Source: an uncultured Planctomycetia bacterium (GTDB lineage Bacteria > Omnitrophota > Gorgyraeia > CAYWPX01). Taken from it: a stretch of 64,000 nucleotides of DNA. The stretch spans positions 9,524 to 73,523 of the forward strand of contig CAYWPX010000005.1 of the NCBI GenBank assembly GCA_964460615.1, read 5' to 3'. The position numbers and the translations under genes are program-made. Below are positions 2,860 to 44,101 of the stretch, in pieces. Each line of letters starts with the position of its first letter. The stretch's first letter is position 1. A model generated the notes under the pieces. It was not told the DNA's origin, ran no database searches, and was given only the letters and a program-made list of their open reading frames with translations.

Positions 2860-3603
2860 ATGAAAAGATTTTTTAACTGGCAAGTCATTCTTGCTTGCTT
2901 ACTGATAAGCCTTTCAATAATATTTTATCTTCTGCATTATTTTTTATTCAGAGATGCCCATCATATTTTCTTATATATGATAGGCGACATAGCATTTTTA
3001 TTTTTAGATGTCCTCATTGTGACAATGGTCCTGCATCGTCTGCTTGAATTCAGGGAAAAAAGATCGATACTTAATAAGCTTAATATGGTTATCGGAACTT
3101 TTTTCAGCGAAGTAGGCACCGAGCTTTTGAAAAAATGCTCAAGGTTTGACCCGGGGTTAACCGATATAGCTAAGTCGCTAGTTATCACAGCAGACTGGAA
3201 CAATAAAGAGTTTGCCGCAGGACGCGCATCCGTAAAAAAACACGCTTCTAACCTGAACAGCAAAAGCGGCAATCTGGCTGAGGTAAAAGATTTTTTGGTA
3301 ACAAAGAGGCCTTTTTTGCTGAACCTCCTGGAGAATCCTAATTTATTGGAGCACGAGTCGTTTACGGAACTATTGTGGGCGGTATTTCATTTGACCGATG
3401 AACTGGTGCACAGAAAAGATCTTTCTAGATTACCCGATACCGACTATCAGCATCTGTCAGGTGATATAAAGCGGGCTTACCAGCAGTTGATTTTGCAATG
3501 GCTGGATTACATGAGGCACCTTAAATGCAACTATCCTTATCTATTTTCTCTGGCGATTCGTATGAATCCTTTTGACGAGAAAGCCTCTATAGAGGTTAAA
3601 TAA
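2860..3603 (+). CDS. Hypothetical membrane protein
   Basis: Two N-terminal TM helices followed by a soluble domain. No motif recognised. Confidence 0.4.
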   Translation: MKRFFNWQVILACLLISLSIIFYLLHYFLFRDAHHIFLYMIGDIAFLFLDVLIVTMVLHRLLEFREKRSILNKLNMVIGTFFSEVGTELLKKCSRFDPGLTDIAKSLVITADWNNKEFAAGRASVKKHASNLNSKSGNLAEVKDFLVTKRPFLLNLLENPNLLEHESFTELLWAVFHLTDELVHRKDLSRLPDTDYQHLSGDIKRAYQQLILQWLDYMRHLKCNYPYLFSLAIRMNPFDEKASIEVK

Positions 3604-3625
3604 ATAGTCAATGACTATTTATTTA

Positions 3626-3658
3626 GCTCATGGCTTCCGCCACAAAGCGTTGGCGGGC
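3626..3658. repeat. Intergenic module GCTCATGG-CTTCCGCCACAAAGCGTTGGCGGGC (CCGCCA/TGGCGG hairpin). Second, diverged copy at 9656-9694
   Basis: Direct comparison of the two intergenic stretches. Both lie 60-150 nt upstream of a + strand start and are followed by a GATAGCTGATGG-type heptamer module. Confidence 0.6.
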
Positions 3659-3808
3659 CCCGAGAAATTGTGAAGCAATTTCCGGGACTAAGTCCTTGGA
3701 ATTTTATTATTTAAAATTCCTAAGGGCAGGGATAGCTGATGGTTATAACGCGCTGCTTGGCACCAGGAATACAATTAAATCAATACAACCTTAACTATAG
3801 GAGGAGAT

Positions 3809-33352: not shown

Positions 33353-34123
33353 ATGAAAAAAAATATTAAAAAAACAACAGAAAATATAAAAGTTAAAAGG
33401 GAAAAGATATCCAGCCTAGAATTTTTCATTTCTAAAAAGATCGGCCGCGCGATCTTTGATTATAATATGCTTTCTGATAACGACAGAATACTCGTAGCGG
33501 TTTCAGGGGGGAAAGACAGCCTGATGCTTTTAAGAATTTTACATCAAAGGCAGTCATTCGTCCCCATAAAATACAAGCTTCTTGCCGTGCATATTGTCAG
33601 TGATTTCCATTGCCAGGGTTGCGCAAATTCAAAAAATCTTGAGAAGTTCTTTAAAGAGAATGATATCGATTATATCATCAAAAAAATCGAGATCCTGAAA
33701 AATTCCAAAAAAAAGATAGACTGTTTCTGGTGCAGCTGGAATAGGCGTAAAGCACTTTTTGATCTGGCTAAAGAGCACTCATGCAAAAAAATCGCATTTG
33801 GCCACCATAAAGACGATATCGCTCAGACAATGCTTTTAAATCTTTTTTTTAACGGCGAGATAAGCACAATGCCTGCAAAACTGAGTATGTTTAATGGTGA
33901 GTTCCATATAATAAGACCCCTGGCTTATGTGGAAGAAAAAGACATTGCCAGATTCGCTAAGGAGATAAATCTGCCTATAAATGCGTGCAGGTGCCCTTAT
34001 GGCGCGGATTCTTCCAGAAACCTTATGAGAAATATCATCAAAGAGGTGGAAGAGATTAATCCGAAAGCGAAGACAAATATCATAAAATCACTTGAACGAA
34101 TAAAAGAAGGCTACCTTTTGTGA
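33353..34123 (+). CDS. PP-loop ATPase, TtcA-like tRNA 2-thiocytidine/thiolation enzyme
   Basis: PP-loop LVAVSGGKDS plus Cys pairs (CQGC, CFWC, CRCP). Confidence 0.6.
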   Translation: MKKNIKKTTENIKVKREKISSLEFFISKKIGRAIFDYNMLSDNDRILVAVSGGKDSLMLLRILHQRQSFVPIKYKLLAVHIVSDFHCQGCANSKNLEKFFKENDIDYIIKKIEILKNSKKKIDCFWCSWNRRKALFDLAKEHSCKKIAFGHHKDDIAQTMLLNLFFNGEISTMPAKLSMFNGEFHIIRPLAYVEEKDIARFAKEINLPINACRCPYGADSSRNLMRNIIKEVEEINPKAKTNIIKSLERIKEGYLL

Positions 34124-34884
34124 AAAAATACAACAGTATCATCACTTTTCTTGGAACAGGAGCGGGGACGCCCACCAAAACAAGGTCCGAGGCCGGCATC
34201 CTTATTTCATCCGGTTCCTTAAAAATCCTGATCGATCCCGGCTCTGCCATTATTGAGCGATTACTCAAAATAAATGTGACATATCACGATATTACTCATA
34301 TAGTCATATCGCATCTGCACCCTGATCACGTTCAGGGATTGATTTCATTTCTTTTTTCGTCAAAATTCCATCTTTCTCCAAGGCGAAATGACCTGATAAT
34401 AATCGCACCCAAAGGTTTCAGGCGCTTTCTTAATAAACTTCAGGAGACATTTGACAATACGATCACGCCCGAATTTTATAAACTTAACATCCATGAGGCA
34501 AGCAATAAGGTCATAAATTTTAAAGAGCTTAAAATCACTTTTGCAAAAACTCTCCACAGCATAGAAAGCATTGGCTACAGATTCCATATAAATGGCAGGA
34601 TCATAACATACTCAGGAGATACGGGTTATTGCCAAGACATCATCGATCTTTCCAAACATTCAGACATCCTGATTTTAGAATGTTCTATGCCTGATAAATT
34701 TAAGGTAAAAAATCACCTTACACCAAGCTTGGCCGGAAAGATAGCTTCTCAATCCGGCTCAAAAATCCTAATATTAACTCATTTTTTCCCTATTTGTGAA
34801 AAATTTGATATACTAAGTAAAGCGCATTTAATATTTAAGGGAAAGATCGTACAAGCATATGATTTCATGAGTATAAAAATATAG
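34120..34884 (+). CDS. MBL-fold metallo-hydrolase (RNase Z/ElaC-like)
   Basis: HxHxDH motif ISHLHPDHVQG. Start overlaps the upstream stop (GTGA/ATGA coupling). Confidence 0.65.
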   Translation: MKKYNSIITFLGTGAGTPTKTRSEAGILISSGSLKILIDPGSAIIERLLKINVTYHDITHIVISHLHPDHVQGLISFLFSSKFHLSPRRNDLIIIAPKGFRRFLNKLQETFDNTITPEFYKLNIHEASNKVINFKELKITFAKTLHSIESIGYRFHINGRIITYSGDTGYCQDIIDLSKHSDILILECSMPDKFKVKNHLTPSLAGKIASQSGSKILILTHFFPICEKFDILSKAHLIFKGKIVQAYDFMSIKI

Positions 34885-36090: not shown

Positions 36091-36118
36091 TTGAAATAAT
36101 ATATATTTAATGTATAAT
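36091..36118 (+). promoter_or_regulatory. Sigma70-like promoter TTGAAA-N16-TATAAT
   Basis: Near-consensus hexamers read directly, ~25 nt upstream of the 36144 start. Confidence 0.55.
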
Positions 36119-36143: not shown

Positions 36144-37388
36144 ATGGCCAAAAACGATACATTAAGCGACCAAAATAAAAGGCAGTATCTCAGAATAGAT
36201 ACTGTTTTTCCTATAGAATTCCAGATTACCAGCGAAGACAGGATGCGCACTCTCTCTGATTTAAAAGAGGGATTTACCAGAAATATCGGTAAAGGCGGTA
36301 TCTGCATAACCACAAAAATAGTAAAAGGTGCCTCTTTTCCCGATCTCTTGCCGAAAAAAACCAAATTAAAGCTTATTATCAATATCCCCCCTGACCGAGA
36401 ACCCTTAGAGTCATTCGCTACGGTCGAATGGGTAGAAAAATATTCCGGTTCACTTTTGGATACATATACATTCGGTGCTTCCTACGATTATATAAACGAA
36501 GAAGAATATGAAAGAATATTAGGCTATTTGAACTGGATCCGCCACAAACCGAAGGTCCTTACCGGTTTTGTTATAGTTCTAAGCTTAATAATAATATTTG
36601 GCATTGGGCTGATGATAAAATCAAATAAATTGCAAAACATCGCTCAGCAATTTCTTATCAGTAAAGACACCCTTGTAAAGATCGAGTCCGAACTCGAAAG
36701 GAAAAAACTCGAGGTCTTATCCATACAAAAGGAACTTGAAAATCTTCAGACCCAAAGAGAGACCGAAGAGTCATTAAGGGACGAATTAGAATCTAAGCAG
36801 TCAGATCTTGAGAAATTTCTTAAGGATCTGGAAGCCAAAAAAAATTCCTTACGCGAAGAAATAGACTCTCTTAATGCCGAAAAAAATGCCGATGAAGAAC
36901 AACTCCTGGAAAACGAAACTACTAAATCGGAAACTGAAACTATAGTTCCTGAAGAGCTTGGCTCTGAAGAGGTTATCCCTAAGTCCGCCGAAACTGTTGC
37001 CTCAAAATCTCCCCAGATTTCCCAAGAACTACTTAGACTAGAGGAAACCAATTACAACAGATTCCGCGAATTGATCCTTCAGGAAAAGGTACAGAGCCTT
37101 GAAATCTACTGCTCATCTCACAAATCTAGCATATATTATCCAGCGGCACTTTTTGCCTTAGCCGAGATTCAATACAAAGCCAGAAATAATACATTCGCAA
37201 AAGCCAATTACACAAAACTAGTCGAAAATTTTCCTGATAGCATATACGGCCTTTATTCAGGACATCGTTTGGATCAAATAAATAGTTATTATAATTACAA
37301 CCGGTATTCATTAAAAGATTTATCCGAACAATACAATTTGCCGGCTCTTTATGACTATAAAAAACTAGAGCCTTATATCAAAGAATAG
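36144..37388 (+). CDS. PilZ-domain protein with TM helix, long coiled coil and C-terminal TPR/YbgF-like region
   Basis: PilZ motifs RQYLRID (RxxxR) and NIGKGGI (D/NxSxxG). TM at ~130-150. Heptad-rich 170-300. C-terminal TPR-like segment. Confidence 0.6.
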   Translation: MAKNDTLSDQNKRQYLRIDTVFPIEFQITSEDRMRTLSDLKEGFTRNIGKGGICITTKIVKGASFPDLLPKKTKLKLIINIPPDREPLESFATVEWVEKYSGSLLDTYTFGASYDYINEEEYERILGYLNWIRHKPKVLTGFVIVLSLIIIFGIGLMIKSNKLQNIAQQFLISKDTLVKIESELERKKLEVLSIQKELENLQTQRETEESLRDELESKQSDLEKFLKDLEAKKNSLREEIDSLNAEKNADEEQLLENETTKSETETIVPEELGSEEVIPKSAETVASKSPQISQELLRLEETNYNRFRELILQEKVQSLEIYCSSHKSSIYYPAALFALAEIQYKARNNTFAKANYTKLVENFPDSIYGLYSGHRLDQINSYYNYNRYSLKDLSEQYNLPALYDYKKLEPYIKE

Positions 37389-37404
37389 AATGGAGGTGTA
37401 TAAA

Positions 37405-37635
37405 TTGAAAATCAAAGCATATGTGCTAATGAACTTGAATACCGACAATCTTCAGTCAACATTAGAAAATGTCAAGAAAATCTCCGGCGTAACAACGGCT
37501 GATGCTATCATCGGGCCTTACGATGCTATAGCCATTTTGGAAGCAGGACACATGGATGAGATAGGAAAAATCGTTGTCGAAAAAATCCTTAAAGTTCCAG
37601 GTGTGGCTAAAACCCTTACATGCGTAACCGTTTAA
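37405..37635 (+). CDS. Stand-alone Lrp/AsnC C-terminal (RAM) ligand-binding-domain mini-protein
   Basis: ~77 aa beta-alpha-beta-beta-alpha-beta pattern (KAYVLMNL...ISGVTTADAIIGPYDAIAILEAGHMDEIGKIVVEKI). TTG start 8 nt after a GGAGGTG RBS. Ends 6 nt before the next ATG. Confidence 0.4.
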   Translation: MKIKAYVLMNLNTDNLQSTLENVKKISGVTTADAIIGPYDAIAILEAGHMDEIGKIVVEKILKVPGVAKTLTCVTV

Positions 37636-37641
37636 CTATAA

Positions 37642-39594
37642 ATGCAAATATTCAAATATTTTCAGGATAAGGCATATATAATCAATCAGCTGCCAATTTT
37701 TTCTGATTTAAGCGATGATGAGAAGAAAATGGTAGCTGAATTATGCCAATTTTCTGAATATAAAAAAAATGAACTTATTTATAAGCAATCAAGCCCGCCT
37801 GACAAATTCTATCTCATTATAACCGGAAGGGTCGAGGTTTTCTCTTTTTCGAAAAACGGAAAAGAGGAACCTCTTGAATATTTAAGAAGAGGACAATTTT
37901 TCGGTATTATTTCACTCTTAATAGGCGAACCGCATTCTGTAAGCGCAAAGGCAATAAATGATTCTGTAATACTGACGATAGAAAAAGATAATTTTGATCT
38001 TATCCTTAAAAAAATACCCGGACTTTCTTTCTATTTCAGCCAATACTTATCAAGAAGATTAAAAAGAAAAGACCTTCATCCGAAATCTGTTTTTGAAAGC
38101 ACTATAATTGCGGTCTTTTCGCAAGATAGGCTTACCGGCAAAACTCTCTATTCGGTGAACCTGGCTCTCAGCCTTATCAAAGAATCCAACAAAAAGGTCA
38201 TCCTTGTCGATATGAGCCCTCAGGGGAATAAGATCTTTTCTATGCTCGGAGAACCCGCTCCTAAAGCCATAAATTTAAACAACAGCTTCTTTGATGAAAA
38301 AGCCATTAAAGAAAACCGAATATATCATAAGCTGGGAATCGATATATTAGGAATAGAATACTCTGAGCTTAAAAGCGAAGAGTCTTTTAAGATAGGGGCT
38401 CTCTTAAGCCTTTTGACAAACGAGTACCACTATATCATTCTTGATCTGCCCCATATTATCGATTCTACAATCTCAAAAACATTAGCACAATCTGATCTTA
38501 TACATATCATTACTGTTGCCGAAGAAGAATACCTCAAAAAAACCAATTCTATTATTAAAGAATTCAAAGAAAACCTGAAATCAAAAAGTGAGGATATCAA
38601 GGTAATAGTAAATGAATACGAACTTAAAAAATCTTTACCGCATTCAAAAAGGGCCGAAATACTTGGGCATCAGATTTACGCGACTCTCCCTGATATAGAG
38701 CTTCATCTTAGCTTCGACAAAGAAAAAATTGTTTTAGACTACCCGGAATCATCTTACGCAAAAGCTATTCGACGCATAGCCAGAGACATAAGCCATGTTT
38801 TGATCGGATTGGCACTGGGTTGCGGCGGAGCCATGGGATTAGCTGACATAGGAATACTAAAAGTCTTTGAAAGGGAAAAGATCCCCATTGATATGATCTC
38901 CGGGACAAGCATAGGAGCTATAATTGCGGGTTTCTGGGCGGCCGGATTCAATTCAAAAGACTTGGAGAACATATTTAGAAAACAGACCGGAAAATTTTCT
39001 ATGTTTGGGTTGATCGATCTTGTTTACCCTAAAAGCGGTTTCATAAAAGGCAAAAAAATTGAAAATTTTCTTAAAAAATACCTGGGTACCAAAACCTTTT
39101 ACGATACAAAATTGCCTCTCAAGATCATCGCTTGTGATTTAGTGAACCGCCAGGAAGTTGTACTAGACAAGGGAAGCCTCACTAGCGCAATACGCGCCAG
39201 CATAGCAATCCCGGGAGTAATACAACCTCTGGAGCTGGATGGAAGAATACTTGTTGACGGAGGGATCGTAAATCCGGTGCCGACAGATGTCCTGATCCAG
39301 TCAGGAGCCAGTAAGATAATATCCGTCAATTCACTTCCTGGTCCTGTAGCTAGTAAAAATCTCAGAAAAATTCGTTTTAAAGCGGGAATTTTTGACACGA
39401 TTGTGATCAGTATCCAGGCAACTGAATTCATTATAGGGGAAAGAAGTTGCGAAGATTCCGATATAGCTCTTAGGCCAATCCTTGATGAAGTTGAATGGTT
39501 TGAATTTAGCGAGATCGATAGGCTTATAAAACTTGGCGAAGAGACCGCAGAACAATTCCTTCCTCAAATTAGGCAGTTAAGCTTGGACCAATAA
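37642..39594 (+). CDS. Three-domain protein: N-terminal cyclic-nucleotide-binding (CAP-type) domain, middle degenerate ParA/MinD-like domain, C-terminal patatin-like phospholipase (NTE/RssA-like)
   Basis: cNMP domain (GRVEVFSF...RRGQFFGIISLL...SAKAIND). Middle region has a degenerate Walker-A-like segment SQDRLTGKTLYSVNLALSL. Patatin motifs GCGGAMGLADIG (oxyanion), GTSIG (GxSxG) and DGG. Confidence 0.7.
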   Translation: MQIFKYFQDKAYIINQLPIFSDLSDDEKKMVAELCQFSEYKKNELIYKQSSPPDKFYLIITGRVEVFSFSKNGKEEPLEYLRRGQFFGIISLLIGEPHSVSAKAINDSVILTIEKDNFDLILKKIPGLSFYFSQYLSRRLKRKDLHPKSVFESTIIAVFSQDRLTGKTLYSVNLALSLIKESNKKVILVDMSPQGNKIFSMLGEPAPKAINLNNSFFDEKAIKENRIYHKLGIDILGIEYSELKSEESFKIGALLSLLTNEYHYIILDLPHIIDSTISKTLAQSDLIHIITVAEEEYLKKTNSIIKEFKENLKSKSEDIKVIVNEYELKKSLPHSKRAEILGHQIYATLPDIELHLSFDKEKIVLDYPESSYAKAIRRIARDISHVLIGLALGCGGAMGLADIGILKVFEREKIPIDMISGTSIGAIIAGFWAAGFNSKDLENIFRKQTGKFSMFGLIDLVYPKSGFIKGKKIENFLKKYLGTKTFYDTKLPLKIIACDLVNRQEVVLDKGSLTSAIRASIAIPGVIQPLELDGRILVDGGIVNPVPTDVLIQSGASKIISVNSLPGPVASKNLRKIRFKAGIFDTIVISIQATEFIIGERSCEDSDIALRPILDEVEWFEFSEIDRLIKLGEETAEQFLPQIRQLSLDQ

Positions 39595-39633
39595 AGAGCT
39601 TTGAAATCAAATTATTAGGCTTTTAAATTAGCT

Positions 39634-39660
39634 TGATTAATTTACCCATTAATATATAAT
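39634..39660 (+). promoter_or_regulatory. Possible promoter TTGATT-N15-TATAAT overlapping a CCCATTA/TAATGGG hairpin
   Basis: Hexamers read directly. Spacer is short (15 nt). Confidence 0.25.
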
Positions 39661-39685
39661 AATGGGTGTCTAATATTTAGGGGAA

Positions 39686-40186
39686 ATGATGATATTATTT
39701 ATAGAATTATTGGTTATTCTGGTTTTAATGCTCATCTGGTTTTCGGTGAGTAGGGAGGAATCCCAAAAAATCAAAGATTCAATCTCCAAGGCTACTCTCA
39801 GGGAAATATGGGAAGGTACTGAAAGAAGGAGGTCTTTCAGATTGCCCGTATCTTTAGAAGTGCGGTATGTTATCGAGAAAAAAATACAAGCCAGTTTAAA
39901 AAGCAGGAGTAAAAATATTTCATCCGGCGGGATAATGCTTGAAGCTGAAGAGAAAATTTATCCGGGCACTCCGCTTAAATTAGAGATCATTCTGCTGGAT
40001 AATAAACCCCCTATCCAGACTGAAGCAGAGGTTATTTGGGTAGATGAAGCTAATGAATCCGATAATATCGAAAAAAGACACTTTAATATCGGAGCAAAGT
40101 TTATTTATTTAAATAATGCCAGCCTTAAACGCATAGATGAGTATGTAAAACAAAAAAGGGAAGATTCCAATGAAAGAGAGACGTAA
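39686..40186 (+). CDS. Membrane-anchored PilZ-domain protein
   Basis: TM helix, then RRSFRLPVSLEV (RxxxR) and NISSGGI (DxSxxG-like). Confidence 0.65.
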   Translation: MMILFIELLVILVLMLIWFSVSREESQKIKDSISKATLREIWEGTERRRSFRLPVSLEVRYVIEKKIQASLKSRSKNISSGGIMLEAEEKIYPGTPLKLEIILLDNKPPIQTEAEVIWVDEANESDNIEKRHFNIGAKFIYLNNASLKRIDEYVKQKREDSNERET

Positions 40187-40712
40187 ATTTAAACGTTTAG
40201 CCGTAGAAATACCCATTCAGTTGGAACCGGTTTTAAACAAAAAACAAGCTTCAACCACTGCGTATCTATTCAATTCAAAAAATATTGCTGAAGCGGGAAT
40301 GTTCCTTCATACTCCTATTAAATATAAAAAAAATCAGGCACTCGATTTTCTCATTAAACTTAGGAATGATTCTAACCCAATTCATCTGATAGGAAAAATT
40401 GTCTGGATAGCCAATAAAAAGGACCACCCATATCTCTATCCGGGAATTGGCATTAAATTCTCATTGATCAATGAGAATGATAAAAAAAGATTAAAAAAGT
40501 TCTTAAAGAGCCGCTTAGCCAGCTACAAAGATGCCAGAGAAATGAAGGATATGTACCTAAAACTAAAGAAAATGGCCGCAAGGCTTATTTCTTTGGAGGA
40601 AAAACATCCCACCGCATCTCAGTTTAAAATAATTATCGATAAGGCGATTTCGGAGATCGACAATGCCGCTCACACAATAGACAGAGAAATTATGGAGATC
40701 AAGAAGCTCTAA
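40170..40712 (+). CDS. PilZ-domain protein with C-terminal helical extension
   Basis: RRKFKRLAVEIP and NIAEAGM motifs. 17-nt overlap with the upstream gene. Confidence 0.65.
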   Translation: MKERRKFKRLAVEIPIQLEPVLNKKQASTTAYLFNSKNIAEAGMFLHTPIKYKKNQALDFLIKLRNDSNPIHLIGKIVWIANKKDHPYLYPGIGIKFSLINENDKKRLKKFLKSRLASYKDAREMKDMYLKLKKMAARLISLEEKHPTASQFKIIIDKAISEIDNAAHTIDREIMEIKKL

Positions 40713-40726
40713 AGGCTTTATAATAA

Positions 40727-41245
40727 ATGGGTACTATCAAAAAACCTCTTCCGGTTAAACTTATTGCTGGGCTTATCTACCATGATGAATCATTCCTAGA
40801 GTTGTCCAAAAAATTTCTTGTAAAAAAATTTGGACAGATTGATTTCGAAAGCGAAACCCTAAATTTTAATTATACAGATTATTACTCAAAAGAGATGGGT
40901 AATAATTTGCTAAGAAAATTTATTAGCTTCAAAAAACTTCTTATTCCCGAAGATTTTGATAGAATAAAGCTTTATACAAATAAAATTGAATCAAGACTAT
41001 CATGCAATGATAAGAGGCAGATCAATATTGATCCAGGATATCTGAATGACGCAAAACTCGTGCTATTGACCACTAAAGACTATTCGCATAGGATCTATCT
41101 TGGCCGCGGCATATATGCCGAAACAACTCTTGTTTACAAAAAAGGGAACTTTGAAGGCTATGATTGGACATATCCTGATTACAAAAAAGATTATATCAAT
41201 ATATTCACGGACATAAGAAAGATATTTTTATCACAAATACATTAA
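40727..41245 (+). CDS. DUF4416-like protein
   Basis: Pattern KKPLPVKLIAGLIY...INIDPGYL...LVLLTTKDYSHRIYLGRGIYAE recalls DUF4416. Assignment by recall only. Confidence 0.4.
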   Translation: MGTIKKPLPVKLIAGLIYHDESFLELSKKFLVKKFGQIDFESETLNFNYTDYYSKEMGNNLLRKFISFKKLLIPEDFDRIKLYTNKIESRLSCNDKRQINIDPGYLNDAKLVLLTTKDYSHRIYLGRGIYAETTLVYKKGNFEGYDWTYPDYKKDYINIFTDIRKIFLSQIH

Positions 41246-41246
41246 A

Positions 41247-41852
41247 ATGGGAAAAATTTTAAAGAAAAAAAGTATTATTGTTATAACCGTATCTTCAATA
41301 ACGCTCTCGATAGTGATCCTCTCGACTTTTGCGGGATTTTTTCTGTATGCAACTTGGAAAGAGAACGAGGGCGAAGAGTTGTATTTGGAAAAATTAGGCT
41401 CAGTATTGGCGCAAACATATTATAATAAGATTGTCATTACTGATTTAGAGGCAAAAATAAGCAAAACATACCCATATAAAGAAAAACCTGTTCTGAAGGG
41501 ATCCATTGAAAATTTGGGGAACTCTACTATTAAACATCTGGTCATAAAAGTCTACTTTCTTGATTTTAGAAATGACTCAATATATGATGTCGAATTTGAG
41601 CCGTTAAAATATATTTCAAAAAAAGAAGGTGTGGTTACTCCGTTTATTGAGATGCTTATCAGGGAAGACGAGGTCCCGTTGGGGGAAAACGAAAAGGCTG
41701 AATTTACTTATAGTCTGGAAAACTGCCCCCCGGAAATCGGCAAAATGATTGAAAACAACCAACTAAAACCTACTTTTGTCAAACACAGAATAAACAAGGA
41801 TTCGTGGTCAGGTAAATTGAAAACCAAGATATTAAGGATGAGATTTTTTTAA
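41247..41852 (+). CDS. Membrane-anchored hypothetical protein
   Basis: N-terminal TM helix. Soluble ~170-aa domain of unknown function. Tightly coupled to its neighbours. Confidence 0.4.
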   Translation: MGKILKKKSIIVITVSSITLSIVILSTFAGFFLYATWKENEGEELYLEKLGSVLAQTYYNKIVITDLEAKISKTYPYKEKPVLKGSIENLGNSTIKHLVIKVYFLDFRNDSIYDVEFEPLKYISKKEGVVTPFIEMLIREDEVPLGENEKAEFTYSLENCPPEIGKMIENNQLKPTFVKHRINKDSWSGKLKTKILRMRFF

Positions 41853-43522
41853 TGAAAAGAATTGCTTTTGTATTAATTACAGTCGCGAGCTTAATCGTTC
41901 TCATTTTCTTTGCCTCTTTTTATTTTGTAGATAGAGAGAAACGAAAAGTTTATTATTATAATATCTATAAAGATAATAACTTGATGGGCCATATTAAGCT
42001 TGAAAGATTCATTACTGAAGATAAAATTATTTATATCTCAACAAAAACTTTAGAATTCGAGCCATACCAAAAAAAAGTCAAATCAAAGCTTGTTATAGAT
42101 AAGTTTTCCCATGAATTCGAAGATTTTAGCGAAGAAGAAATTGAACTTGGAGCAAAAAAATTTTTAACACTGCAAAACAAAAAAAATAGAATAAGTTTTT
42201 TAAGCTCTGAAGATTCTGAATTTACTTATCTTGAAAATCATGAGATCACCAAGAAAATTAGCTTATTTAAAAAAGACAGCATCATAACTTTCCCTGAAAT
42301 TATAAAAAAGTTCAATCCTGAAAGAGGGCTTACTGCCGAGATAAATTGCTTAAACCAATTCTCCGGAACTTATCCTCCTATAGAAAAAATGTTCAGGATT
42401 TCGTTATCCAAAAATGAGATCTTCCGATATAACAATGCCAATGTAAGGACTAATCATCTTATTTTTCATCTTTACAACGATGAAGACATATCCGTATGGA
42501 CTTATGGCTGGCTTAACACTATCATATCCATTGAGATACCTAAAGAAGGCATCAAAATAAACCTGACTCGTAAACCCAGGCTTGACGAAGGCGTGGCTTA
42601 TAAAATAGAAAATAAAACCTACAATGAAACTGAAATAAAATTCAAAAATGGGAATATTGCCCTATATGGGTCGCTGACTACCACGAGAGACCCTAATAAG
42701 GTCCCTGCCGTGATACTGATAGCCGACAGAGGGATAATGGACAGGAACGGAAAAGGTTTATTTCTGACTTTGGCCGATTCCCTTTCAAAAAAAGGCATAA
42801 CAGTCCTTAGATACGATAAGCGTGGCGTCGGAAAAAGTGAGGGCGACTACTCGGCCACAAGTCTAAAAAATAGCCTGGGGGATATCAAGGCAGCTATAGA
42901 TTACTTATATACAATGGAATATATCGATCGGGACAAGATCGGTATAATCGGATGGGGATATGGCGGATACCTCGGGCTCAAATATGCTTCAAGCGATGAT
43001 AGGGTAAAATTTATGATATCCCTTAATAGCGAAGCATTTAATAGAACTAGCGACGAGAACTTTGAAAAACTTCAAAATTTTCTTGAAAATAAAATGGGCG
43101 ATATCAAAAGCTATTTTAATACTATAATAGACTCCTACAAACAAACCTTTGCTATTGCCAGATCTGATAAAGATTGGGCCAATCTAATAGGCAAAAAGGT
43201 TTATTTGGTCAGAACAAGGGAAAATCTTGAAAACAATTTTGACGAAAATTTGAAAAATCTTAATATCCCTGTTTTGATTCTGCATGGCAGGGAAGATACC
43301 GTCGTACCCGTTGAAGAGGCCGATATTTTACATAACAAGATCAGATCTTCCAACAGTATATTATGCGAACTCAAGCTATTTCATAAACTCGGACACAACC
43401 TAGGCGATTACCTATATGACGGACATCATCGTAAATATATTATCGTAAACCAAGAAGTTGTAGGCACAATAACGAATTATATTAATAAAATATCTGTTGA
43501 GGAATACAATACTCAAAAATAA
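41852..43522 (+). CDS. Membrane-anchored S9-like alpha/beta hydrolase-fold protein with the catalytic Ser replaced by Gly (probable pseudo-enzyme)
   Basis: C-terminal domain has the peptidase S9 nucleophile-elbow context GWGYGGY in place of GWSYGGY. Asp (REDTVV) and His (HKLGHN) positions are retained. N-terminal TM plus a ~300-aa unknown domain. Confidence 0.55.
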   Translation: MKRIAFVLITVASLIVLIFFASFYFVDREKRKVYYYNIYKDNNLMGHIKLERFITEDKIIYISTKTLEFEPYQKKVKSKLVIDKFSHEFEDFSEEEIELGAKKFLTLQNKKNRISFLSSEDSEFTYLENHEITKKISLFKKDSIITFPEIIKKFNPERGLTAEINCLNQFSGTYPPIEKMFRISLSKNEIFRYNNANVRTNHLIFHLYNDEDISVWTYGWLNTIISIEIPKEGIKINLTRKPRLDEGVAYKIENKTYNETEIKFKNGNIALYGSLTTTRDPNKVPAVILIADRGIMDRNGKGLFLTLADSLSKKGITVLRYDKRGVGKSEGDYSATSLKNSLGDIKAAIDYLYTMEYIDRDKIGIIGWGYGGYLGLKYASSDDRVKFMISLNSEAFNRTSDENFEKLQNFLENKMGDIKSYFNTIIDSYKQTFAIARSDKDWANLIGKKVYLVRTRENLENNFDENLKNLNIPVLILHGREDTVVPVEEADILHNKIRSSNSILCELKLFHKLGHNLGDYLYDGHHRKYIIVNQEVVGTITNYINKISVEEYNTQK

Positions 43523-43591
43523 TTTGAAATATTGAAATTCATGGTCTTTTGGTGTATATTATTACTTATATGCTAGCAAAAAGAGAGGGAT

Positions 43592-44101
43592 ATGAGTTTT
43601 GAATTATTAGGGTATTATTTAGTTTTTTGCAGTATTGTAATATTCGGTCTGGCAGTCTACTTTGTAATTATTAAATTTAAAAGGTTAACTGAAGACATTA
43701 ACCTGTATGGTAATCTTGCAGGAAATAGTTTTAAAAACCCTGATAAAAAAATTTTTAAAGAACGGCGTGTTTTTGAAAGATTAGGAATAGAGTTAGATGC
43801 TATCTTAAATATCCCGGAACAGAAAAATGTCTTTGAAGCTCAAACAAAAGACATAAGTTCGAGAGGGGTAGGGGTAAAATCTAGGATTTTCTTTCCTGAA
43901 AAAACTCATGTCGAAATAAACCTTATATTATCAAAAACCGACCAATTCGTAACCAAGGGAATGGTTGTTTGGTCTAAGGAAAATTATGATGGAATAAGTA
44001 ACCTTGGGATTAAATTTGATAATTTACTAACGAATGAAATGATCAGAGTTTATAAATACTTTGATGAACTAAAAAATTCAAATTCTAAATTAATAGGTTA
44101 A
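43592..44101 (+). CDS. Membrane-anchored PilZ-domain protein
   Basis: TM helix, then RRVFERLGIELD and DISSRGVGV motifs. Confidence 0.65.
   Translation: MSFELLGYYLVFCSIVIFGLAVYFVIIKFKRLTEDINLYGNLAGNSFKNPDKKIFKERRVFERLGIELDAILNIPEQKNVFEAQTKDISSRGVGVKSRIFFPEKTHVEINLILSKTDQFVTKGMVVWSKENYDGISNLGIKFDNLLTNEMIRVYKYFDELKNSNSKLIG

Follow-up and report, generated by a model that had tools for sequence, protein, structure and literature searches.

Genes at the locus

The window analysed here is a stretch of 64,000 nucleotides (nt) of contig CAYWPX010000005.1, from an uncultured bacterium of the Omnitrophota. Between 36.1 and 40.7 kb its plus strand carries a tight run of genes: an open reading frame (ORF) of 414 amino acids (aa), a small ORF, a 650-aa ORF and two PilZ genes. 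The 650-aa ORF (37642–39594, +), identified from the reading frame itself, its Pfam domains, its homologues and an AlphaFold2 (AF2) model, encodes a fusion protein. In this protein a sensor of the cyclic-nucleotide-binding (CNB) type is followed by a ParA/MinD-fold domain with degenerate ATPase motifs and by a patatin-type lipase domain. The small ORF (37405–37635, +) encodes a stand-alone RAM protein (Lrp/AsnC ligand-binding domain) of 76 aa. The fusion gene starts 6 nt past its stop codon, and the junction reads TAA CTA TAA ATG.

An earlier interpretation of the window from its letters only, called below the sequence-only reading, had taken both plus-strand ORFs as real and spaced by 6 nt. 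This is confirmed: the fusion has 889 homologues, and the ratio of non-synonymous to synonymous substitution rates (dN/dS) of the RAM gene, measured against two relatives, is 0.05–0.07. That interpretation had also joined the two proteins into one regulatory module. Comparison with related genomes did not bear this out, and the RAM protein is a neighbour of the fusion, not its conserved partner.

A three-domain fusion common in Omnitrophota

Three Pfam profiles matched the 650-aa protein above their thresholds: cNMP_binding at residues 39–123 (75 bits), AAA_31 at residues 154–313 (46.5 bits, for a cutoff of 27; CbiA gave 30.7 bits) and Patatin at residues 390–552 (102.7 bits). The three-domain architecture proposed earlier, cNMP_binding, AAA_31/CbiA and Patatin, is thus real. 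The motifs quoted in support of it were each found in place, namely SQDRLTGKT at 38119–38145, GCGGAMG at 38818–38838, GTSIG at 38902–38916 and DGG at 39256–39264 (all +). The AF2 model of the fusion had a predicted local distance difference test (pLDDT) score of 84.4 and a predicted template modelling (pTM) score of 0.83, with pLDDT below 50 at residues 141–145. Neither a transmembrane segment nor a signal sequence was evident at the N-terminus. Among NCBIfam models, none reached its cutoff with the fusion, the best being RssA with 104.6 bits versus 272.

The 889 homologues were obtained by a word-indexed search with the fusion protein. The best 120 are full-length, covering 96–99% of the query at 40–67% identity, and all of those with a source name come from Candidatus Omnitrophota. 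For the analysis of loci, a scan of one genome per species gave 583 relatives, and 80 loci were kept, about 40 of them with a full-length fusion. All residue statistics given below refer to an alignment of 47 homologues that are 40–67% identical to the window protein. The fusion architecture is common in Candidatus Omnitrophota and near phylum-wide.

The statement of the sequence-only reading that this architecture was not described holds in part. A literature search found no paper on a CNB / pseudo-ParA / patatin architecture. Against this, the combination PF00027, PF13614 and PF01734 is already present in the precomputed annotation of many homologues, and hundreds of database clusters carry the three domains under generic names ('patatin-like phospholipase family protein', or 'NTE family protein', the latter a JGI label). 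Precedents exist for each domain and pairing: CNB with patatin in NTE, receiver with ParA in TadZ, and RAM proteins that stand alone. Three things appear to be undescribed: a ParA/MinD pseudo-ATPase placed between a CNB sensor and a patatin lipase, the conservation of that three-domain fusion across a phylum, and an invariant Arg-to-His change in the pocket of its CNB sensor.

The middle domain is a ParA/MinD fold without the ATPase motifs

The middle domain spans residues ~153–386 (38098–38799, +). The ParA/MinD-like fold predicted for it passed the fold test, and the fold is complete. The isolated segment matched ParA (8ray, E 3.6e-7) and Soj at the sequence level, with SQDRLTGKT, the degenerate remnant of the Walker A motif, opposite NQKGGVGKT, so that it aligns to the KGGVGKT of ParA. 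A Walker B-like strand, YIILDLP (38431–38451, +), is hydrophobic and ends at D268; D268 and P270 are each conserved in 46 of the 47 homologues. The domain therefore has the fold and the Walker B of the ParA/MinD family, and lacks its deviant Walker A, xKGGxxGK[ST].

Inspection of the alignment revealed that this loss, which the earlier interpretation had noticed in the window protein as the missing GG of a degenerate Walker A, holds for the whole family. The signature Lys is found in none of the 47 homologues (Asp in the window), and neither is the Gly-Gly pair, for which the window protein has Arg-Leu. Of the 47, 45 retain the second Gly (G166). Position 167, which corresponds to the P-loop Lys, is K in 21, R in 14, T in 4, V in 3, A in 3 and C in 2. 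Since the P-loop Lys is freely replaced among orthologues that are otherwise well conserved, the alignment indicates that the ParA-like domain is a pseudo-ATPase throughout the family, its ATPase function having been lost. Judged from this decay of the motifs, ATP binding and hydrolysis, and dimerisation that depends on ATP, would all be gone.

The domain might nevertheless still act as a nucleotide-dependent switch, at least in those members that keep Gly-Lys-Thr, driving dimerisation with ATP or positioning the protein on membrane or nucleoid in the manner of MinD, FlhG and ParA. The window protein does retain G166-K167-T168 together with the nearly invariant D268, its fold is complete, and its nearest relatives outside the fusions are localisation proteins of the CpaE/TadZ type. 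This reading nonetheless has to accommodate an Asp at the signature position, where Lys never occurs in the family, bulky residues (Arg-Leu for Gly-Gly) within the phosphate loop, the substitution of the P-loop Lys (by R, T, V, A or C) in 26 of the 47 orthologues despite strong conservation elsewhere, and the still greater erosion, or the deletion, of the P-loop among more distant homologues. We consider it unlikely, and favour a domain that has ceased to be an ATPase. The description of the lipase as nucleotide-regulated is correspondingly doubtful, as the P-loop is degenerate and the CNB pocket is devoid of the canonical Glu and Arg (see below).

A search of the middle segment against 1.84 billion representative proteins returned as best matches fusions of 620–720 aa, with the domain at ~145–390. 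They were followed by a group of ~370–430 aa with the domain at ~135–380. Eight members of this second group were sampled; all carry AAA_31/ParA and three also match Response_reg N-terminally, a layout which, judged from these profile matches, is of the CpaE/TadZ type. The same representative library contains a 711-aa protein (P0265) in which an N-terminal AAA_31/ParA-like domain is joined to a secretion ATPase of the T2SSE (CpaF) type, apparently a fusion of CpaE with CpaF.

The more distant relatives with more eroded or deleted P-loops comprise CNB-less versions from Omnitrophota and Verrucomicrobiota, and proteins of Candidatus Vecturithrix, of a cultured Leptospira and of an Ardenticatenia metagenome-assembled genome. 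In a Verrucomicrobiota protein, the middle region still aligns collinearly with the ParA-like domain (E 0.002). When the middle domain was compared by pairwise BLAST with the homologues from Leptospira and Ardenticatenia, the result was not significant, and for Leptospira collinearity was seen in the profile alignment alone; we therefore make no claim of a ParA fold for these two. Shorter CNB-less relatives of ~500–590 aa occur in Omnitrophota and Verrucomicrobiota (loci L034, 3365–4915; L035, 1748–3346; L037, 5974–7488; L043, 710–2425; L044, 5779–7554). In them a ParA-collinear N-terminal region, from which the P-loop is gone, precedes the patatin domain.

The sensor pocket is conserved and non-canonical

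The N-terminal domain is a sensor of the CAP/CNB type (residues ~14–140; 37681–38061, +), with a match to the PF00027 profile and the beta-roll CNB fold. In receptors of cyclic AMP and cyclic GMP (cAMP, cGMP) such as PKA, CRP and MloK1, the phosphate-binding cassette reads FGE-x8-R[ST]A; its Glu holds the ribose 2'-OH and its Arg the cyclic phosphate. The equivalent segment of the window protein, FGIISLLIGEPHSVSAKA (37900–37953, +), reads FGI...HSV: Ile stands in place of the canonical Glu, and His98 in place of the canonical Arg. Both changes are general. Position 89, that of the Glu, is I in 30, T in 10 and M in 7 of the 47 homologues and never Glu, and all 47 have His where the Arg would be, with an equally invariant S99 after it. 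Outgroup sequences (L039 and L063, from Vecturithrix and Ardenticatenia) keep FGE...RS, so the replacement is a derived state.

The Pro-His-Ser triplet and Asn106-Asp107 are invariant in the domain, which argues that the pocket is under strong constraint and yet is not a canonical cAMP/cGMP site. From the missing Glu and Arg, we infer that the ligand would be bound in a different way, or would not be cAMP or cGMP.

The C-helix of the CNB domain is joined to the ParA-like domain by a conserved basic hinge, SRRLKRKDLHPKSVFE (38050–38097, +), which contains SRRLKRKD. Within it, S137, F151 and E152 are invariant and R138, R139, L140, K143 and D144 are at least 90% conserved. The five residues of low pLDDT in the AF2 model (141–145) belong to this hinge.

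The patatin domain keeps its catalytic dyad

The C-terminal domain (residues ~387–650; 38800–39594, +) has what is expected of PF01734: a profile match above the curated threshold, an alpha/beta fold and a Ser-Asp dyad. The nucleophile elbow GTSIG contains Ser423, and G421, S423 and G425 are invariant (47/47). The same is true of D539, G540 and G541, which form the DGG motif of the catalytic Asp539. The oxyanion loop GCGGAMG is Gly-rich, with G393, G395 and G399 conserved, and departs from the usual GGxR/KG by the absence of a basic residue: position 398 is M in the window and Y, L, M or Q in the family, never R or K. With an invariant Ser-Asp dyad and a Gly-rich oxyanion loop, the domain is probably competent for catalysis.

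Neighbouring genes of the fusion in other Omnitrophota

Neighbours were clustered over 39 fusion loci and annotated by Pfam, which revealed three main arrangements. A GH1 glycosidase lies directly upstream of the fusion in 12 of the 39 loci, and an acyl-CoA dehydrogenase of the very-long-chain type in 7. The third arrangement has PilZ, DUF520/YajQ, PilZ and FGGY kinase genes upstream, and thiolase and FadB-like genes downstream. A thiolase directly follows the fusion in 5 loci, FadB-like genes are found in 5, and an FGGY (glycerol-kinase-like) kinase directly precedes the fusion in 3.

With a PilZ hidden Markov model (HMM), PilZ genes were detected upstream of the fusion in 12 loci. In several of these, two PilZ genes are best matched by the window genes starting at 39686 and 40170, in the same order. 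These two window genes (39686–40186 and 40170–40712, +; Pfam PilZ, 59 and 47 bits) overlap by 17 nt and lie downstream of the fusion, so that the pair occurs with the fusion in two gene orders. The window holds four PilZ-type genes within 8 kb (36144–44101), starting at 36144 (a weak match), 39686, 40170 and 43592 (43592–44101), and all four carry RxxxR and [DN]x[SAG]xxG motifs. In one clade a DUF520/YajQ gene stands between the two PilZ genes upstream of the fusion (L025, at 3201–3695; L028; L029; L032). The PilZ pair is better evidence of co-occurrence with the fusion than the RAM gene is, though it is clade-limited.

One reading of this association is that the fusion is an output of cyclic di-GMP (c-di-GMP) signalling: the PilZ pair, and YajQ, would bind the pseudo-ParA or the CNB domain, or c-di-GMP would be a direct ligand of the remodelled CNB pocket. 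YajQ family members bind c-di-GMP in Xanthomonas, and some proteins of the CRP family do so as well. The four PilZ-type genes of the window with their RxxxR and [DN]xSxxG motifs, the persistence of a similar pair in two gene orders and the YajQ gene between PilZ genes in four loci are all consistent with it. The association is, on the other hand, confined to 12 of about 40 loci plus the lineage of the window, and PilZ genes are apparently numerous in these genomes, so that chance adjacency is plausible. Taken as an explanation of the fusion, a c-di-GMP output is in our view improbable; a regulated lipase with possible cross-talk to c-di-GMP is preferred.

The domain content also recalls anti-phage abortive infection of the Pycsar or CBASS (cyclic-oligonucleotide-based anti-phage signalling system) kind, where a cyclic-nucleotide sensor would unleash a patatin phospholipase that destroys the membrane. 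At the level of domains, the fusion resembles the phospholipase effectors CapV/CapE and, in its CNB part, PycTIR. Neither a nucleotide cyclase (or CD-NTase) nor a recognised defence gene was found near the fusion. PADLOC and NCBIfam matches were partial and far below family cutoffs (CBASS_lipase, 35 bits versus 200), and on this footing the protein was not retained as a defence-system candidate. The fusion is moreover conserved at full length across a phylum, amid housekeeping and lipid-catabolism genes and not in variable islands, and it lacks the canonical residues that contact cyclic mononucleotides. A role in defence is thus highly improbable. A metallo-beta-lactamase-fold gene of the window (at 34120) was considered as a phosphodiesterase of the Apyc1 (anti-Pycsar) type and rejected, as its match was partial, with 27 bits for a cutoff of 50.

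The RAM gene belongs with its upstream neighbour

In the program-made list, the RAM ORF begins with an ATG (37390) and has 81 aa. Each of its 42 homologues in the database, in contrast, has a length of exactly 76 aa, and two related loci (L081 and L082) keep the arrangement GGAGGTG-N6-8-TTG and not the upstream ATG. The 81-aa version is thereby ruled out, and the start at TTG 37405, as chosen in the sequence-only reading, is right. The Shine-Dalgarno (SD) sequence GGAGGTG is at 37392–37398 (+). A TTG start is thus combined with one of the two strongest SD matches among the 56 genes of the window, the other being upstream of 55103.

The protein matches AsnC_trans_reg (36.3 bits, cutoff 25) over residues 14–79 of the 81-aa ORF. 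The Pfam scan showed no helix-turn-helix (HTH), in agreement with the earlier view of a RAM protein without DNA-binding domain. Its closest solved structures are the stand-alone RAM proteins 2zbc, 2djw, 2e1a and 2cvi (E 2e-7 to 7e-4). Together with the low dN/dS, for which dS between L081 and L082 is unsaturated (0.31), these data show that RAM is a genuine gene under selection. A read-through fusion of RAM and lipase was discarded: the two are in frame in the window with two stop codons between them, and the 11-nt gap of L081 and L082 shifts one out of frame with the other.

The proposal to be weighed was that the free RAM protein and the fusion form a small-molecule-gated, nucleotide-regulated phospholipase module, with translational coupling to fix their proportion. 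In its favour are the 6-nt gap on the same strand, a fusion ATG without SD sequence, the adjacency kept in L081 and L082, and a promoter-like site upstream of the 414-aa gene with a terminator-like site past the fusion. The gap and the missing SD are as described earlier; coupling is an interpretation of them, and they do not single it out, since 36 of the 56 window genes have no SD-like match and the gap of relatives is 11 nt. In this genome, where an SD-like match of at least 4 nt was found for only 20 of 56 genes, initiation is mostly SD-less.

Co-occurrence was more decisive. All ORFs of at least 40 aa were taken from the 80 related loci and searched by phmmer with the single sequence, then with an HMM built from the 42 sequences. 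Neither search detected a RAM ORF in the ±6 kb around the fusion at any of the 80 loci, including the ~40 with a full-length fusion. Adjacency was seen in the window, in L081 (fusion 67% identical) and in L082 (RAM 74% identical, synteny identical to the window) only. The fusion is absent from eight further RAM loci (L083–L090), with RAM proteins at 59–62% identity; there the genes that come after RAM encode, in this order, a methyltransferase, an epimerase, a nitroreductase and an alpha/beta hydrolase. A RAM-lipase module of this kind is thus very unlikely and, tempting as it was, has been removed as unsupported.

Upstream, the situation is different. An orthologue of the 414-aa protein lies directly upstream of RAM in eight loci; six aligned over their full length at 40–60% identity, the alignment started at query residue 68 in L089, and it covered the C-terminal 114 residues only in L084. 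Orthologues occur in L082–L084 and L086–L089, the upstream flank being too short to judge in L085 and L090. The 414-aa gene (36144–37388, +), with weak matches to Pfam PilZ and TPR_6, encodes a protein with RQYLR and NIGKGG motifs, one hydrophobic segment, a long coiled coil and a C-terminal TPR. The break in synteny thus falls precisely in the gap that separates RAM from the fusion; RAM is part of the upstream block and is beside the lipase only through a rearrangement specific to this lineage. The pair of a ~400-aa PilZ-like protein and a 76-aa RAM protein is conserved across Omnitrophota, and may be the real functional unit of the RAM gene. The metallo-beta-lactamase-fold gene mentioned above (34120–34884) is syntenic with the RAM block, and not with the fusion.

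A proposed regulated lipid acyl-hydrolase with a pseudo-ATPase scaffold

The explanation that we prefer, and hold with moderate confidence, is that the 650-aa protein would be a cytoplasmic, allosterically regulated lipid acyl-hydrolase of the NTE/RssA kind, acting as a phospholipase A or lysophospholipase. This degree of confidence applies to the explanation as a whole, in which the ParA-like domain is a pseudo-ATPase scaffold, the sensor is non-canonical and RAM is only a neighbour. The ParA-derived domain, no longer an ATPase switch, probably serves as a rigid scaffold, a dimerisation piece or a transducer that transmits a conformational change of the sensor to the lipase. The CNB C-helix would meet it through the conserved basic hinge, and the patatin domain would be joined to it with almost no linker. 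Such a rigid coupling fits the high pTM, the basic hinge (SRRLKRKD) and a patatin domain that follows with hardly any linker. The role of the enzyme would be housekeeping membrane-lipid turnover or lipid catabolism, possibly in cross-talk with c-di-GMP signalling, as suggested by the recurrent neighbours: acyl-CoA dehydrogenase, thiolase, FadB-like proteins, FGGY kinase, the PilZ pair and YajQ.

Several points weigh against this explanation. In 12 of the 39 loci, the gene upstream is a GH1 glycosidase, which has no link to lipids, and the evidence from gene context is clade-specific. The Arg/Lys that phospholipase-type patatins usually have in the oxyanion loop is missing, so that the substrate could be a neutral lipid or another ester. 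The window member keeps Gly-Lys-Thr and the Walker B Asp, and may have residual nucleotide binding. In this lineage a single transcript may cover the 414-aa gene, RAM and the fusion, and a local functional link may then exist. Finally, substrate, ligand and oligomeric state are deduced for every member of the family.

A broader generalisation can be formulated, which we regard as speculative and rather unlikely. In bacterial NTE-type lipases, the ParA/MinD-derived pseudo-ATPase would be indispensable as the transducer, acting by allostery or dimerisation. Well preserved in Omnitrophota, it would have become near-unrecognisable in Leptospira, Chloroflexota and Verrucomicrobiota, and would conceivably be homologous to the region that precedes the patatin domain in eukaryotic NTE. 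The His-type CNB pocket would then sense a ligand other than cAMP or cGMP and be wired to c-di-GMP through the PilZ pair.

Relation to known systems

Patatin lipases are dangerous enzymes, which cells gate tightly. The closest functional analogue of the fusion is NTE/PNPLA6/Swiss-cheese, where CNB domains are likewise N-terminal to a patatin Ser-Asp esterase. The fusion differs from it by the lack of an N-terminal transmembrane segment, by one CNB domain instead of three, by the ParA/MinD-fold domain between sensor and lipase, and by the His that replaces the phosphate-binding Arg; the likeness is one of domain architecture. In the Drosophila Swiss-cheese protein (SWS), mutation of the CNB sites abolishes the phospholipase function (PMC12710771), and the CNB sensor therefore controls the lipase there. 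Other patatin proteins are more distant from the fusion. RssA is a single-domain protein of ~300 aa, whose equivalog cutoff of 272 the fusion misses by a wide margin. PlpD is secreted as the passenger of an autotransporter, whereas the fusion is cytoplasmic, with two regulatory domains and an oxyanion loop without Arg/Lys.

Compared with CpaE/TadZ and with MinD/FlhG/FleN, the fusion has lost the deviant Walker A (KGGxxGK[ST]) and has its domain covalently joined to an enzyme; no tad, flagellar or division genes were found near it. The CBASS effectors CapV/CapE have no CNB or ParA-like domain and adjoin a CD-NTase. Relative to CBASS and Pycsar effectors, the fusion has no cyclase nearby, a housekeeping context and a non-canonical CNB pocket. 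The stand-alone RAM proteins of Sulfolobus, Thermus and Pyrococcus are, as in the window, Lrp/AsnC ligand-binding domains of ~75–90 aa with no HTH. The window RAM differs from them as a member of a 76-aa subfamily specific to Omnitrophota, consistently placed after a PilZ-like membrane protein of ~400 aa.

To our knowledge, the control of NTE-type lipases by CNB domains is still unexplained, even for the human disease gene PNPLA6, and we know of no cultured model for Omnitrophota. The fusion would offer a compact, soluble bacterial version of the NTE type, in which the element that couples sensor and lipase is identifiable as a ParA/MinD fold without ATPase motifs. It would also illustrate clearly how an ATPase switch was reused as a pseudoenzyme scaffold. 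The family, conserved and near phylum-wide, is a candidate marker of lipid physiology in Omnitrophota, and its sensor pocket, where Arg is invariably replaced by His, predicts a non-canonical ligand that can be searched for.

Other features of the gene run

The best sigma-70-like promoter match of the region (11/12) precedes the 414-aa gene at 36091–36118 (+), and the fusion gene is followed by a terminator-like hairpin (39643–39668, +). Both are consensus matches only, and terminator-like sites in the region are not more numerous than expected from shuffled sequence. In this lineage, the 414-aa gene, RAM and the fusion may form one transcript. After the PilZ pair, at 40727–41852, a DUF4416 gene and a gene with a weak match to DUF2393 are followed by one for a 556-aa alpha/beta hydrolase, and this order is kept in L082.

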